From a virus (Duplodnaviria > Heunggongvirae > Uroviricota > Caudoviricetes): DNA of 33,030 nt. The number at the start of each line of letters is the position of its first letter. Position 1 is the first letter of the stretch. Location of the stretch: the IMG/VR virus record IMGVR_UViG_2548876960_000009. One strand, given 5' to 3'. Positions 15,913 to 28,946 of the stretch are shown here, piece after piece. The notes below the pieces were generated by a model. It did no database searches. It saw nothing but the letters and a program-made list of their open reading frames with translations, and was not told the DNA's origin. Both the position numbers and the translations under genes were made by a program.

Positions 15913-16114
15913 TTTTCACTTTCTTAAATCTAACGACAGACGGCTAACATTTAAGTATTGTGAAATATTATCAAATGTAATCATCATTGATTTACAAAAG
16001 ATACATTTTGCCCCGAAAGGATTCCTGTCAGAAACATCAAAAGATGATGTTCTATACTGAGAACCATGGCAACACGGGCATCTAAAGTGAATATGGTTTG
16101 TAATATTTTCTACC

Positions 16115-16327
16115 TCAAAGTGCCACTACATGAACAGCCGCGGGGCCTTTAGGTCCGTTCTCAATACCAAATTCGACTTGCTGATTCTCAGTTAACGTTT
16201 TGAAATCGTTGCTCTGAATAGCTGAGAAATGGACAAACACATCTTTGCTACCATCTTTCGGCGTGATGAAACCAAAACCTTTTTCAGGGTTAAACCATTT
16301 CACTAAACCAGTCATTTTGTTAGACAT
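16115..16327 (-). CDS. cspI: Cold-shock protein CspI-like (CspA family)
   Basis: 70-aa [48 protein letters not shown]..., RNP1/RNP2 cold-shock domain; closely matches K-12 CspI as recalled. Confidence 0.9.
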
Positions 16328-16690
16328 TATTATTACCTTTTGAAGAAGTTAGCCCTTGGGCAGAATGGTCCGAAAAAAAATATCAGAGAGAAAAACCAAC
16401 AAGGAAATCTCAAGAGGTACAAATAATAAAATTATAACAATGACTGCTTCAGATAATTTTGTAACAAACCAGAACACCATTAACGCATGATTAACCAACC
16501 ATAGCAAGGATTACTTTTGTAAAGAAAAACACACGAATGAAACAATAGCTTTATTTATTAATAAAACGTGTCATTCTGTCTAATGACCTTTTATCTTACC
16601 CTTAAGATTTCAAGGATTTTGACTCATGGAAGAGTCCTTTTTATTTAAATTTCACATTCAGCGCTAAAAATAATCCGATTTAATATTAAT

Positions 16691-19285: not shown

Positions 19286-19563
19286 ATTGTGGTACTTTTT
19301 GTGGGAGTCATCCACTTACGCACTTTGTTTTGCTATGCCAGCAGTTAGCTTCTGCTGTAAAACTATTCATGCAGCAAACCTGCACTTCACCACAATGGTT
19401 AGCATACTTTTCCTGATTAAGTTATTGCCAAATATGCTGGCCATCGTTTCATGTATTGGACCTCCTTACTATTTATTAAAGAGATCCAATATTCACCACT
19501 CTGTCTGTATCTCCACTCAGGCATCAGCCTTCTTCGTTATCGTATACAGACAAACTATGAATT

Positions 19564-19779
19564 TTAATCAGTAATTATGACATTTGCTGCTGCAGGACCT
19601 TTAGCACCACTCTCTACAGAGAAGGTAACCTTTTGACCTTCAAATAAGGTTCGAAAATTATCATTCTGAATCGCAGAAAAATGCACAAACACATCTTTAC
19701 TACCATCAACAGGAGAAATAAAGCCGAAACCTTTATCAGCGTTAAACCATTTTACTAAACCAGTCATTTTATTTGACAT
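19564..19779 (-). CDS. cspB: Cold-shock protein CspB-like
   Basis: 71-aa [56 protein letters not shown]... Confidence 0.9.
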
Positions 19780-20079
19780 TCTACATTCCTTAACTTGAGC
19801 CTTTCGGCATAAATGGCTTGTATAACAGAAACGACTTCGTACTTAATTGGAGAGACTCAAAGAAGGAATAAGTGAATAACACCTGAAATGAGAACTGCTT
19901 TAGTAAACTACTTCGTATATCGTCTGTTCTTCAAACCGACGCAATCATTAACGCATAGTTGAACATATGAAGCAATGTTTATTTTAGACATCCAGCCATC
20001 TTCAACCCCATCAAAAAACTATAGCTTTCTTCAGGAACGTGTGTATAGTGCGCCCAGTTATCAGTATTAAGGAATTTTT

Positions 20080-26302: not shown

Positions 26303-26494
26303 CTAATCTTTCGGATAGATATCCGGTCTTAAGTCAGATTTCGTAATTGCACCTGACGTGCATTGCTCAAGTTTTTTAGCCAGCACAAAACTGGCTTTTT
26401 TATAGCCATTGAAAACCAGCCGTAAGTAGCCAGGTGTTGAGCCAACTTTTCCGGCCAACTCGCCCTGCTGTTCTTTGGTTAAAGAGTCCCAATA
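26303..26494 (-). CDS. Cro-like HTH repressor (63 aa)
   Basis: From the ATG at 26494 (GGAGGT 9 nt upstream): MKAYWDSLTKEQQGELAGKVGSTPGYLRLVFNGYKKASFVLAKKLEQCTSGAITKSDLRPDIYPKD; divergent from cI across the operator region. Confidence 0.7.
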   Translation of the reverse strand, partial: YWDSLTKEQQGELAGKVGSTPGYLRLVFNGYKKASFVLAKKLEQCTSGAITKSDLRPDIYPKD

Positions 26495-26497
26495 CGC

Positions 26498-26577
26498 TTT
26501 CATACAATATGTACCTCCGGTGTACATATTACATGATTGAAATGAACCTTCAAGATACTTGTACCTTAACGGTACAA
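26498..26577. promoter_or_regulatory. OR-type operator region: two inverted repeats with GTAC-N7-GTAC cores
   Basis: ATATGTAC-ctccggt-GTACATAT (26498-26520) and CTTGTACC-ttaac-GGTACAAG (26557-26577), both perfect palindromic arms, flanking the PR -10/-35. Confidence 0.65.
26525..26552 (-). promoter_or_regulatory. PR-like promoter for cro
   Basis: Minus strand TTGAAG, 16-bp spacer, TAATAT; the -10 abuts operator 1 and the -35 abuts operator 2. Confidence 0.55.
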
Positions 26578-26593: not shown

Positions 26594-27268
26594 ATGAAAA
26601 CAATCCATGACATCCGGCGGTCTAACGCCAGAAAACTGAGAGATGGTGTTGGCGGGAATTCTTCCTTTGCCACTATGATTGATCGCGAGCCAACCCAGAC
26701 CAGCAGGTTTATGGGAGATGGTGCTACTAAAAATATCGGTGACAGCATGGCACGACACATCGAAAAATGTTTCGACCTACCTGTCGGATGGCTCGATCAA
26801 GAACACCAGACAACGAACATCACAAAAAAACCTGATGTTTCAATCACTAATAAACAAATCACATTAGTCCCTGTCATATCATGGGTACAGGCCGGAGCAT
26901 GGAAAGAAGTTGGATATTCTGAGGTTGATTTGAGCACAGCAGAAACGTATCCCTGCCCTGTACCCTGTGGGGAAATGACTTATATCTTGCGGGTGATAGG
27001 TGATTCAATGATTGATGAGTACCGCCCGGGAGACATGATTTTTGTCGATCCTGAAGTACCTGCCTGCCACGGTGACGACGTTATTGCATTGATGCACGAT
27101 ACAGGTGAAACCACCTTCAAAAGGTTAATAGAAGATGGGACACAACGTTATCTCAAAGCGTTAAACCCAAACTGGCCTGAGCCTTACATTAAGATCAACG
27201 GTAATTGCTCTATAATTGGTACAGTGATTTTCTCAGGAAAACCAAGAAGATACAAAATCAAAGCCTAA
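26594..27268 (+). CDS. CI-like repressor (N-terminal HTH, C-terminal S24/LexA-type autopeptidase domain)
   Basis: 224-aa ORF; the C-terminal half contains ...RVIGDSMIDEYRPGDMIFVD... and a downstream Lys consistent with the Ser-Lys dyad; divergent from cro. Confidence 0.8.
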   Translation: MKTIHDIRRSNARKLRDGVGGNSSFATMIDREPTQTSRFMGDGATKNIGDSMARHIEKCFDLPVGWLDQEHQTTNITKKPDVSITNKQITLVPVISWVQAGAWKEVGYSEVDLSTAETYPCPVPCGEMTYILRVIGDSMIDEYRPGDMIFVDPEVPACHGDDVIALMHDTGETTFKRLIEDGTQRYLKALNPNWPEPYIKINGNCSIIGTVIFSGKPRRYKIKA

Positions 27269-27280
27269 TCAATGTTTATG

Positions 27281-27303
27281 AACCTGCTTCGGCAGGTTTT
27301 TTT
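27281..27303 (+). terminator. Intrinsic terminator after cI
   Basis: AACCTGC-TTCG-GCAGGTT followed by TTTTT, 13 nt after the cI stop. Confidence 0.75.
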
Positions 27304-27307
27304 ATAC

Positions 27308-27335
27308 TTGACAATGTACCTTTGAGATACATAAT
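27308..27335 (+). promoter_or_regulatory. PL-like early-left promoter with overlapping operator half-sites
   Basis: TTGACA, 16-bp spacer, CATAAT; the spacer/-10 contain ATGTAC-ctttgag-ATACAT, the same ATGTAC-N7-GTACAT architecture as operator 1. Confidence 0.55.
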
Positions 27336-27444
27336 GTACCCAAGAGAAACAACGAACAGGCAGGACGCCCACGAAGTAGCCGCCTGGGGCATATGAAGTC
27401 CAGGATGATTCGTTAGCAACAAAAAAGCGCCCTACAGGACGCTT

Positions 27445-27457
27445 AGCTCTTTAACAA
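27445..27457 (+). promoter_or_regulatory. boxA-like antitermination element (rrn-type GCTCTTTAACAAT) preceded by a hairpin
   Basis: GCTCTTTAACAAT read at 27445-27457, about 110 nt downstream of the PL -10; imperfect hairpin AGCGCC-CTACA-GGACGCT at 27426-27443 immediately upstream. Confidence 0.45.
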
Positions 27458-27502
27458 TCTGGTCCCCATCAACAAGTAACTGATAACTTGAGGAGATGTG
27501 AA

Positions 27503-27709
27503 ATGCACAAAACAGAACCCAAAATCGTCGCGCCTGGCTACACAGATGAGGAAATTTATGAGTGGATGACAAAGAAGCTGGCAGCTATAAACCAGCTTCG
27601 TGAAGTGCTGTCTTATCGACAGGAAACAATAGACTCCTTAAAAAAACTGGATCAGGAAATCACGGTTTTATCACAGAATGTTACTTTAGATATTGTGCAG
27701 ACAAATTAG
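27503..27709 (+). CDS. Hypothetical 68-aa protein in the N position (first ORF after PL); not arginine-rich
   Basis: ATG at 27503 with GAGGAG 8 nt upstream; MHKTEPKIVAPGYTDEEIYEWMTKKLAAINQLREVLSYRQETIDSLKKLDQEITVLSQ...; its 3' end overlaps the convergent 144-aa gene by 29 nt. Confidence 0.4.
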   Translation: MHKTEPKIVAPGYTDEEIYEWMTKKLAAINQLREVLSYRQETIDSLKKLDQEITVLSQNVTLDIVQTN

Positions 27710-28115
27710 GATCCCATTCATTTTCGTCAAAATCATCAAAGTGATGAATTTGTGATCTCCAGTCTCGATAATCTAAAAATTTCTGGGCGGTTACGCTTAT
27801 TTTATCAAGTGTGAGTTCATCCTGAATTGAAAGAAGAAGTTCATCAAATTTCATCTCATTAATCTGTTTTGGCATCCAGTGATGCTTCATCAGAATAAGG
27901 TGAACCAGAGCCTTTTTCCCATTCAACTGATTATAGGGAGTGCCGAATTTCTTCCGGTGCTCATGTAAGACAAGGTCCAAAAGAGTAAGTAATGTTGCCC
28001 TTGATTCAACTTTGCTTATTTCGACTGATGACACTACCCCACTGATTTCAATGCCCCGATACTTTCCAACATTTTCACAGTGGGATTTGTACAGCGTATA
28101 GATATTACCGGACAT
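27681..28115 (-). CDS. Hypothetical 144-aa protein, AT-rich, reverse-oriented moron next to the immunity region
   Basis: ORF with AAGGAAAAG upstream of the ATG at 28115; composition visibly more AT-rich than flanking phage genes; C-terminal ...RDWRSQIHHF... No family recognised. Confidence 0.55.
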   Translation of the reverse strand: MSGNIYTLYKSHCENVGKYRGIEISGVVSSVEISKVESRATLLTLLDLVLHEHRKKFGTPYNQLNGKKALVHLILMKHHWMPKQINEMKFDELLLSIQDELTLDKISVTAQKFLDYRDWRSQIHHFDDFDENEWDPNLSAQYLK

Positions 28116-28399
28116 TTCTTTTCCTTTTGCGTTGTTGGGGATAACCAGATTAACCGAATCCTTGTTGTTGGGGAATAACTAGGTCCACCTCGCCTGATGT
28201 GGCTAAAAGCAGGCACATAACAGCTAAGTATTTTCAACCAGAGAGAATCCTTAGCGTTGTGGTGAATGCGGCTCAGCGCACGCGGGTTAAGGTTGAGGCT
28301 GACAGTCGACCTTCTGTGGATACCCACCCGCCTGGTGTGCAACCTTCGCCAGGCACCGGGAGGCACCCGGCACCACAACTTTATGCTGTGTGTAGTCTT

Positions 28400-28446
28400 G
28401 GCGGTACCAGCTTATACCCTTGCTTCCAGCTGGTACCGCTCTTTTT
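28400..28446 (+). terminator. Strong intrinsic terminator within the early-left transcription unit
   Basis: GGCGGTACCAGC...GCTGGTACCGCT (12-13 bp stem) followed by CTTTTT; no T-run on the opposite strand. Confidence 0.65.
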
Positions 28447-28535
28447 ACAAAACAGAGAAGAGCATCACCGGACGACGGGCTCATAACCCAATCCATCCGG
28501 GCGGCTGCCACCGCAGGTGTTCTTCTCTGTTTTGT
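28447..28535. repeat. Inverted repeat: 16-bp arms (ACAAAACAGAGAAGAG / complementary arm with one G:U-compatible difference at the arm end) flanking a 57-bp GC-rich spacer
   Basis: Read directly at 28447-28462 and 28520-28535; lies between the terminator and the RBS of the YfdP-like gene. Confidence 0.7.
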
Positions 28536-28583
28536 GGAGAAACCAACCGACCTTGCAGGGTCGATATGATGAGGAACAGCAAA

Positions 28584-28946
28584 ATGGCTAGCGAACGCAG
28601 TACTGATGTGCAGGCATTTATCGGGGAGCTGGACGGCGGCGTATTTGAAACCAAAATCGGCGCAGTTCTCAGTGAAGTCGCTTCCGGTGTGATGAACACG
28701 AAAACCAAAGGGAAGGTCTCACTCAGCCTGGAAATCGAACCATTTGATGAGAACCGTGTGAAAATCAAACACAAACTCTCATATATTCGCCCGACTAACC
28801 GCGGGAAAATTTCCGAAGAAGACACCACCGAAACGCCGATGTATGTCAATCGCGGTGGTCGCCTGACAATTCTGCAGGAAGACCAGGGACAATTACTGAC
28901 TCTTGCCGGTGAACCTGACGGAAAACTCCGCGCAGCAGGTCATTAA
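28584..28946 (+). CDS. yfdP: YfdP-like protein (120 aa)
   Basis: ATG at 28584 with GAGGAA upstream: MASERSTDVQAFIGELDGGVFETKIGAVLSEVASGVMNTKTKGKVSLSLEIEPFDENRV...; size and position (before yfdQ-like) match CPS-53 YfdP as recalled. The track's upstream extension from 28266 crosses the terminator and is probably not coding. Confidence 0.55.
   Translation: MASERSTDVQAFIGELDGGVFETKIGAVLSEVASGVMNTKTKGKVSLSLEIEPFDENRVKIKHKLSYIRPTNRGKISEEDTTETPMYVNRGGRLTILQEDQGQLLTLAGEPDGKLRAAGH

Follow-up and report, generated by a model that had tools for sequence, protein, structure and literature searches.

What is the role of a small gene that runs against the early operon of a lambdoid prophage, right behind its repressor gene? 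The question is raised by IMG/VR virus record IMGVR_UViG_2548876960_000009, a DNA stretch of 33,030 nucleotides (nt) that is called the window here and to which all plain coordinates refer. The window is an SfIV/SfV/e14-type lambdoid prophage, and beyond cI it carries a reverse-oriented gene for a protein of 144 amino acids (aa). A sequence-only reading had regarded this gene as candidate exclusion or defence cargo of no assignable family, perhaps forming a two-gene module with a convergent 68-aa open reading frame (ORF). The results presented below place the 144-aa protein in the ECs1072 family, which is already named but uncharacterised, so that the gene is not novel as such. The 68-aa ORF belongs to the YdfC family and accompanies such genes across diverged lineages. 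The two genes are as follows.

27681-28115, minus strand: 144-aa ECs1072-family gene (NF033230, PHROG 5286), with an ATG start
27503-27709, plus strand: 68-aa YdfC-family gene (PHROG 1744), the first early-left ORF, with ribosome-binding site (RBS) GAGGAG at 27490-27495

A convergent gene pair and its orientation

The 144-aa gene is real and under strong purifying selection. Over the 56 phage contigs that carry this allele, its variants comprise 21 synonymous and 5 non-synonymous changes, and the ratio of non-synonymous to synonymous polymorphism (pN/pS) is 0.06. The GC content of the ORF is 0.379, compared with 0.492 for the window, 0.443 for cI and 0.525 for the stretch 28185-28946, and its own RBS (AAGGAA, 28126-28121) lies 5 nt ahead of the ATG; the earlier description of an AT-rich reverse gene with its own RBS thus holds. 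Against the NCBIfam profile NF033230 ("ECs1072 family phage-associated protein") the protein scores 157.8 bits (cut-off 70), and its residues 4-144 align to profile positions 2-142, as expected of a full-length member. It also matches PHROG 5286, a group without assigned function, with an expectation value (E) of 1.5e-90. A word-indexed search for relatives returned close ones only; an exhaustive HMMER search reached the distant ones and yielded 65 cluster representatives at E<=1e-3, nearly all of 145-155 aa, with identity down to about 25%. Two residues, H72 and W134, do not vary in a 51-sequence family alignment, and conservation is at least 90% at R54, L64, G66, A69 and W80. The 144-aa protein is a single-domain protein with this family core (HR ... 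G..AL.H ... W ... EW.P).

The AlphaFold2 model of the protein is confident (predicted local distance difference test score, pLDDT, 93.8; predicted template-modelling score, pTM, 0.88), all-alpha and compact, and structure comparison gave no convincing match to it. Among PDB sequence profiles there was no match besides a chance one to myoglobin at E 0.44. Pfam gave no match for the protein and only scattered single-member noise across the 51 family members, and neither the 144-aa protein nor its 68-aa counterpart matched a family of PADLOC-DB v2.0.0 (5027 models) at E<=1. Profile searches and structure prediction, both proposed with the sequence-only reading, therefore supplied a family and a confident all-helical model but no Pfam or PADLOC match. 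The same reading had seen a HEPN-like R-x4-H-H stretch in RSQIHH (residues 120-125), and this impression did not last. R120, H124 and H125 vary among close relatives, the corresponding residues being ESMTLS in family member P0012 and ASQVHH, RSQIYH and others elsewhere; the stretch is absent from the conserved columns of the alignment, and the HEPN four-helix fold was not detected in the model by structure comparison. An identity as a HEPN RNase was rejected on these two grounds, an unconserved Rx4-6H motif and no HEPN fold match. Literature searches with the protein accession and with the PHROG and NCBIfam identifiers returned nothing, and no paper that treats the ECs1072 family came to light. 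ECs1072 appears with a 2.1-fold decrease in a growth-transition microarray table of strain Sakai (PMC2241611), which is a little evidence of expression outside induction.

The 68-aa ORF overlaps the 3' end of the 144-aa gene tail to tail by 29 nt (27681-27709), exactly as had been noted from the sequence. Its product matches PHROG 1744 at E 8.4e-35 over positions 1-68 of 68 and, in tblastn, shows 39-41% identity over 97% of its length to annotated ydfC genes of Qin/PPompW-type phages; a coiled coil is predicted. With a pN/pS of 0.41 it is under weaker constraint than the 144-aa gene. In prophage Qin, ydfC is a promoter-proximal gene of the repressor-controlled dicBF operon (PMC5069750).

A YdfC-like ORF converges on ECs1072-family genes, and usually overlaps them, in about 10 diverged lineages and three phage operons. 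These partners share an N-terminal motif of approximately EP-I-APG-T-EE-YEWM-KK, followed by a coiled coil. Their settings, with handles of the form L011 denoting the individual loci compared, are as follows.

Window: early-left operon, partner overlap 29 nt
L011: early-left operon of another phage, family gene 38% identical, overlap 95 nt
Salmonella ST64B (sb50): between Q and holin, overlap 71 nt
Klebsiella KPP5665-2 (GP45): between Q and holin, overlap 95 nt
L013: between Q and holin, overlap 113 nt
L018 and L019: overlap 89-107 nt
L066: same slot as in the window, overlap 29 nt
L156: early-left operon, overlap 14 nt
L155: early-left operon, weak partner match, overlap 59 nt
Sakai Sp4: unannotated ORF adjoining ECs1072 itself, weak match, overlap 317 nt (long ORF as called)

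Homology links the YdfC-type partners to the Sb50-type ones (hhalign probability 90.6%, E 1.3e-6), and for each partner profile the best non-seed matches among 1167 ORFs belong to the other type. At one IMG/VR slot represented by 110 loci, many of them near-identical, both genes are present in 52 and neither in 56; a non-overlapping YdfC-like gene stands by itself in the other 2, and the family gene alone in none. L066 holds a divergent family allele that aligns with the P0022/P0034 subgroup (approximately 28-34% identical to the query), and it has its own divergent partner. That the 68-aa YdfC-family gene is a genuine partner of the ECs1072-family gene is strongly supported. The guess of a two-gene module is accordingly borne out as far as the pairing goes, by co-occurrence, but a classical toxin-antitoxin operon is unlikely in view of the convergent genes and the partner-less copies. 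The layout does not fit a type II operon in particular: the genes lie 3' to 3' rather than co-directionally, and Pfam and NCBIfam give no toxin-antitoxin domain.

The pair also keeps a fixed orientation. In every prophage context examined, the ECs1072-family gene faces the flanking lytic operon, and the YdfC-like partner is co-directional with that operon. The operon opposed is that of PL in the window, L011, L015 and L154-L157, that of PR in Sakai Sp4, where the gene lies between a cII-like gene and O, and that of PR' in ST64B, the Klebsiella phages and L013.

Several of these loci deserve separate description. ST64B (AY055382) has an unannotated full-length ECs1072-family gene of 144 aa (L008 2845-3279) opposite the late genes in the Q-holin gap, and KPP5665-2 (MF695815) has one of 157 aa (L009 2818-3291) in the same gap and orientation. 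In Sakai Sp4 (L153 9117-9816), the namesake ECs1072 (now ECs_5703, 151 aa) is reverse-oriented in the early-right operon, with the cII-like gene and the replication gene O on either side, and the unannotated convergent ORF carries the partner motif SPHIWRGGLSDVELAEWL, at 9.7 bits only. The Sb50-type pairs contain the palindrome TGGGATCCCA at L008 3247-3256 and at L009 3247-3256, and TGGGnnCCCA in L018 and L019. The 10 nt of TGGGATCCCA hold the codon of the family's invariant tryptophan and, on the opposite strand, that of a conserved tryptophan in the partner tail, both proteins reading W-D-P. In the window, the partner ends 1 nt ahead of a GGATCC (27710-27715).

The early-left setting and the cargo cassette

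Over 27300-28600, the window shares 97.6% identity with Shigella phage SfIV and 99% with many E. coli prophages, and this 1.3-kb stretch (at least 80% coverage) is found in 408 of 5426 complete E. coli genomes (about 7.5%). Beyond the region of interest, the gene order is yfdP, yfdQ, yfdR, followed in the reference phages by xis and int. Both cI and yfdP/yfdQ/yfdR, the neighbours of the 144-aa gene, lie on the plus strand. The elements that precede the pair are listed here.

26303-26503, minus strand: cro (ymfT)
26594-27268, plus strand: cI (ymfK, Peptidase_S24)
27280-27299, plus strand: intrinsic terminator after cI, closing the PRM/cI unit (terminator scan: GAACCTGCTTCGGCAGGTTT then a T run)
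27308-27335, plus strand: putative PL-like promoter, TTGACA-16-CATAAT, 11/12 matches (promoter scan)
27314-27332 and 27334-27351, plus strand: two putative OL-like operators overlapping the PL-like promoter
27352-27414, plus strand: conserved structured element, a possible leader opening the early-left transcript (blastn identity, consensus hairpin)

The SfV annotation places a terminator at the position matching 27280-27299. The putative operators repeat the OR half-sites found between cro and cI at 26509-26576 (repeat families D1, D3 and D6). Since these predicted PL/OL-like sites separate cI from the 144-aa gene, the gene appears to lie inside the early-left unit and not on the cI transcript; that is, it is placed as antisense cargo inside the early-left operon, downstream of the PL/OL-like control region. 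The rexAB-like position suggested by the sequence-only reading is therefore not supported, as the cI terminator and the PL/OL-like stretch (27308-27351) precede the gene, which also lies on the opposite strand. The 63 nt at 27352-27414, directly behind the PL-like promoter, are 87-98% identical in SfII, mEp460_4F5 and ST64B, phages whose cI and cro show no blastn-level alignment to cI and cro of the window. The consensus fold of these 63 nt is a hairpin with 2 compensatory pairs. They may act as a leader RNA at the head of the early-left transcript; to ascribe a nut- or put-like role to them would be a guess.

Behind this leader, the module occupies a slot with exchangeable contents. In blastn comparisons, SfV, SfII and mEp460_4F5 match the window to 27414 and again from 28185, with different genes between, and PhiR29_1 matches it to 27462 and again from 28131, also with different genes between. 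The cargo of PhiR29_1 is a minus-strand gene for a coiled coil and zinc ribbon (PHROG 1244), which lies between a terminator of the window type and the upstream repeats. The same-slot comparison with related prophages, proposed earlier as a check, thus found unrelated genes in place of the module, and the view of an accessory (moron-type) gene in a cargo hot spot is upheld by these four phages and by the IMG/VR contigs described below. The cassette is composed of the following parts.

27425-27444, minus strand: intrinsic terminator for minus-strand cargo (AAGCGTCCTGTAGGGCGCTT then TTTTTT)
27456-27475, strand unassigned: left arm of the cassette inverted repeat, pairing with 28132-28151
28131-28216, minus strand: conserved, apparently structured leader block of about 85 nt with both CCCCAACAAC repeats (sequence conservation)

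The terminator at 27425-27444 also ends unrelated minus-strand cargo in PhiR29_1 and many IMG/VR loci. Upstream of the 144-aa gene, the two near-identical repeats reported earlier are present, GTTGTTGGGGA being exact at 28131-28141 and 28164-28174. Both contain CCCCAACAAC, and the proximal one is the right arm (28131-28151) of an inverted repeat whose left arm, a third and inverted copy at 27456-27475, pairs with 28132-28151 (inverted repeat I3), so that the arms together bracket the module. The inverted-repeat core AATCTGGATATCC ... GGATATCCAGATT, then GTTAAAGAGC and the terminator, recurs with at least 15 cargo variants among loci L033-L152. In the ECs1072 cassette, the arms read AATCTGGTTATCCCC ... 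GGGGACCAGATT, and complementarity is kept via a compensatory T:A exchange. This 13-20-bp inverted repeat could be a long-range RNA stem, in the transcript of either strand, or a recombination site for cargo exchange.

The leader block is kept upstream of all cargo types, even with unrelated flanks (L034, L045, L055, L066, L118 and others). In it, the distal repeat (28164-28179) lies in a hairpin loop presenting UUCCCCAA, with a stem that covaries in L118 and L055. Two interleaved helices, GCCTG/CAGGC and CCAC/GTGG, form a pseudoknot-like topology, and both are compensatorily changed in L055. RNAalifold gave -5.7 and -9.4 kcal/mol for the two strands of the block. Rfam showed no match for 28131-28216 and, at gathering thresholds, nothing in the module. 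At least 120 IMG/VR phage contigs carry the motif TCTGGWTATCCCCAACAAC, with about 85 nt around it, ahead of several unrelated cargo genes, and because of this recurrence the repeats are not a product of chance. Mobile-element ends and gene-tied features were considered for the repeats and rejected, the CCCCAACAAC motif being absent around distant homologues; for the same reason, the repeats belong to the slot leader and not to the ECs1072 gene. The genes found after TCTGGWTATCCCCAACAAC are the following.

ECs1072 allele: 56 loci
PHROG 1244 proteins: 36 loci
55-aa ORF: 9 loci
Proteins with two transmembrane segments (PHROG 6315): directly in L131, just beyond in L124 and L021
43-aa ORF
Divergent ECs1072-family allele

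In total, IMG/VR contigs show at least six cargo types in the slot, all of them PHROGs of unknown function. Some phages have two tandem reverse-oriented cargo genes in it. In L021 (2959-4502), these are a PHROG 6315 gene in the inverted-repeat cassette and an ECs1072 homologue of the P0048 type adjoining yfdP, for which no YdfC-like partner was detected.

Beyond the leader block, and outside the module, lies one more element:

28226-28448, plus strand: STnc100/PasD-family small RNA (sRNA)-like element (Rfam RF02076)

It matches RF02076 (STnc100) over the full length with 45.1 bits against a gathering score of 47 (E 3.4e-8), and it ends in a perfect 12-bp terminator hairpin (28401-28439, inverted repeat I6). 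DicF gives a weak match at 28387-28441. RefSeq labels the stretch a frameshifted pseudogene. The order of ydfC-like gene, sRNA and further early genes mirrors ydfABC-dicF-dicB of Qin. Elsewhere in the window, the cspA thermoregulator 5' untranslated region (UTR; RF01766) has two full-length minus-strand matches, at 16069-16474 (112.7 bits) and 19501-19940 (158.3 bits), which imply two cold-shock-protein-type genes.

Readings of the module

Based on the results presented above, we tentatively favour, at somewhat less than even confidence, an accessory effector that is expressed in the lysogen, most probably against superinfection, and is switched off in the lytic cycle. The gene pair, its conservation, its orientation and the anatomy of the cassette are shown by the results above; for this proposal, the timing of expression, the antagonism between the two proteins and the anti-phage activity are what we infer. 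The 144-aa gene would most likely be made in the lysogen while PL is repressed, and the 68-aa gene, the first behind PL, only upon induction or infection. Should the 144-aa transcript end at the terminator at 27425-27444, it would be antisense to the whole 68-aa gene. In the lysogen, the ECs1072 protein would act as the accessory effector, most probably against superinfecting phages. Once the prophage goes lytic, strong PL transcription running head-on through the 144-aa gene would silence it, and the YdfC-like protein would also neutralise the effector, so that the phage is spared self-harm. The insulating parts of the module, its own minus-strand terminator and the conserved leader, are both common to unrelated minus-strand cargo.

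The logic of this proposal is that of Tha/Ith in the S. aureus prophages 80alpha and phiNM2, in which a small, overlapping gene in antisense orientation encodes a product that inhibits a defence expressed by the lysogen and thereby avoids autoimmunity on induction (PMC11087260, Rostol et al.). In both cases, a prophage accessory gene is joined with a small overlapping gene on the opposite strand in the lysogeny/early region, as an antisense pair with mutually exclusive expression states, which for the present pair are predicted from the architecture. Here, too, the small gene is conserved with its larger neighbour, with overlaps of 14-113 nt in about 10 lineages. The likeness ends at the architecture. 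The two pairs have no sequence or fold relation, as Tha has a HEPN RNase domain whereas the ECs1072 protein is all-helical without a conserved Rx4-6H. Moreover, tha of 80alpha belongs to the cI transcript and ith is driven by a constitutive promoter of its own (PMC11087260), whereas here the small gene belongs to the lytic operon and a separate leader and terminator serve the larger gene.

Several results weigh against the effector reading. No functional data were found for the ECs1072 and YdfC families, and YdfC is described as being of unknown function (PMC5069750). The promoter scan found no sigma-70 promoter reaching 9/12 matches for the minus-strand gene, and by eye there are weak candidates only. 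PADLOC gave no match for the other cargo types of the slot, none of which is a known defence gene. The independent observations behind the 110 loci come to approximately 10-15 lineages. Partner-less family members exist, namely L012, the P0048 subgroup (L015, L021-L032) and L016, the last being a chromosomal orphan outside any prophage. YdfC-like genes are likewise found without ECs1072, in Qin/PPompW, L122 and L124. Because they occur alone, the dependence between the two families runs one way, and the partner may also play a separate role.

In another account, which we consider unlikely, the YdfC-like protein would serve early lytic growth or host takeover and be kept silent by the ECs1072 gene, a device against leakage that would stabilise lysogeny and have no anti-phage role. 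Convergent transcription and a long antisense 3' UTR would block stray read-through from PL, PR or PR', and the protein may bind leaked YdfC-like protein. The greater spread of YdfC-like genes, together with their occurrence without ECs1072, fits ECs1072 as an accessory of YdfC; the module sits directly behind lytic promoters in three operons, and its reverse transcript, if ended at 27425-27444, covers the partner including its RBS. The Qin dicBF operon, which begins ydfA-ydfB-ydfC, is toxic on expression (PMC5069750), but toxicity of YdfC itself is unreported in the literature found. On the other hand, members without a partner persist, one of them in a non-prophage chromosome (L016), and the pN/pS of 0.06 with the conserved compact fold suggests protein activity, not a mere transcriptional roadblock.

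The low GC content, own terminator and opposite orientation are typical moron features, and they would also suit a gene that alters lysogen physiology, for host fitness or virulence, unrelated to phage conflict, the overlap being a by-product of tight packing. Such a role agrees with the occurrence of the module here in 408 of 5426 complete E. coli genomes and with the adjacent STnc100/PasD-type sRNA, which a preprint ties to pathogenic lineages (10.64898/2026.05.13.724894). However, a specific partner that is strictly inherited with it, over 25-40% identity and in three genomic slots, would be unexpected for such a gene, and the 144-aa protein has no signal peptide, transmembrane segment or known effector domain; we regard this account as quite improbable. 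The tight linkage, overlap and co-inheritance of two small genes, in an antisense layout that recalls type I systems, could in turn point to a toxin-antitoxin-like addiction module that stabilises the prophage, with ECs1072 as the toxin and the YdfC-like protein or an antisense transcript as the antidote. Yet the genes are convergent without co-transcription, and an antidote encoded behind a lytic promoter under repression would be missing from the lysogen, just when the toxin of the opposite strand would be present. Partner-less copies exist, and neither protein matches a toxin or antitoxin family in Pfam, PADLOC or NCBIfam. An addiction module is therefore very improbable.

Taken to its widest form, the effector reading would make ECs1072 and its YdfC-like partner an unrecognised prophage immune module of several enterobacterial genera, in which a new all-helical effector fold is combined with an antisense-overlapping anti-effector of the lytic operon that gives self-immunity, in three lambdoid operons; the inverted-repeat cassette of SfIV type, with its conserved structured leader, would then be a new plug-and-play device for the expression or exchange of reverse cargo. 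This wide form is rather doubtful.

Known systems and significance

Other accessory genes at lambdoid immunity regions, rexAB and sieB of lambda and sieB of P22, act in the lysogen. Of these, rexAB is co-transcribed with cI from PRM, and sieB is co-directional with PL. The 144-aa gene, in contrast, lies behind PL and runs against it, and its product shares no sequence similarity with these proteins and has no membrane segments. BstA, a much larger protein with a KilA-N-type domain, offers a different comparison. Its likeness to the present module would be that of cI-adjacent prophage cargo with built-in sparing of the carrier phage. BstA is a single-gene cargo downstream of cI in BTP1 and other Gram-negative prophages, is expressed in lysogeny and has cognate aba self-immunity (PMC8585504), but this self-immunity is conferred by a 63-bp DNA element, not by a protein (PMC8585504). 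The 144-aa protein also matches no PADLOC model, although whether PADLOC-DB includes a BstA model was not checked. A close parallel for the partner is the Qin dicBF operon (ydfA-ydfB-ydfC-dicF-dicB), where a YdfC homologue is likewise promoter-proximal in an early-left operon under repressor control. In both, an sRNA with a terminator follows, which is DicF in Qin and the STnc100-like element here. The difference, judged by the operon gene order in PMC5069750 only, is that Qin lacks an ECs1072-family gene ahead of the sRNA and behind ydfC. The module is thus outside Tha/Ith, HEPN, RexAB, SieB, BstA and any PADLOC family, and its likeness to Tha/Ith is architectural only.

In the literature searched, the partnership with YdfC-like genes, the orientation rule over three operons, the model without structural relatives and the anatomy of the cassette are undescribed. 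An anonymous hypothetical protein is now a defined, testable two-gene unit, and its pairing recurs in early-left, early-right and late operons. Prophage cargo by the immunity region has repeatedly proved to be phage defence (RexAB, SieB, BstA and Tha), and how such defences spare their own phage is a current question. As a compact source, the cassette slot offers candidate functions expressed in lysogeny. Even if it is no defence, the module would be a clean example of control by convergent transcription that is linked to the switch from lysogeny to the lytic cycle.

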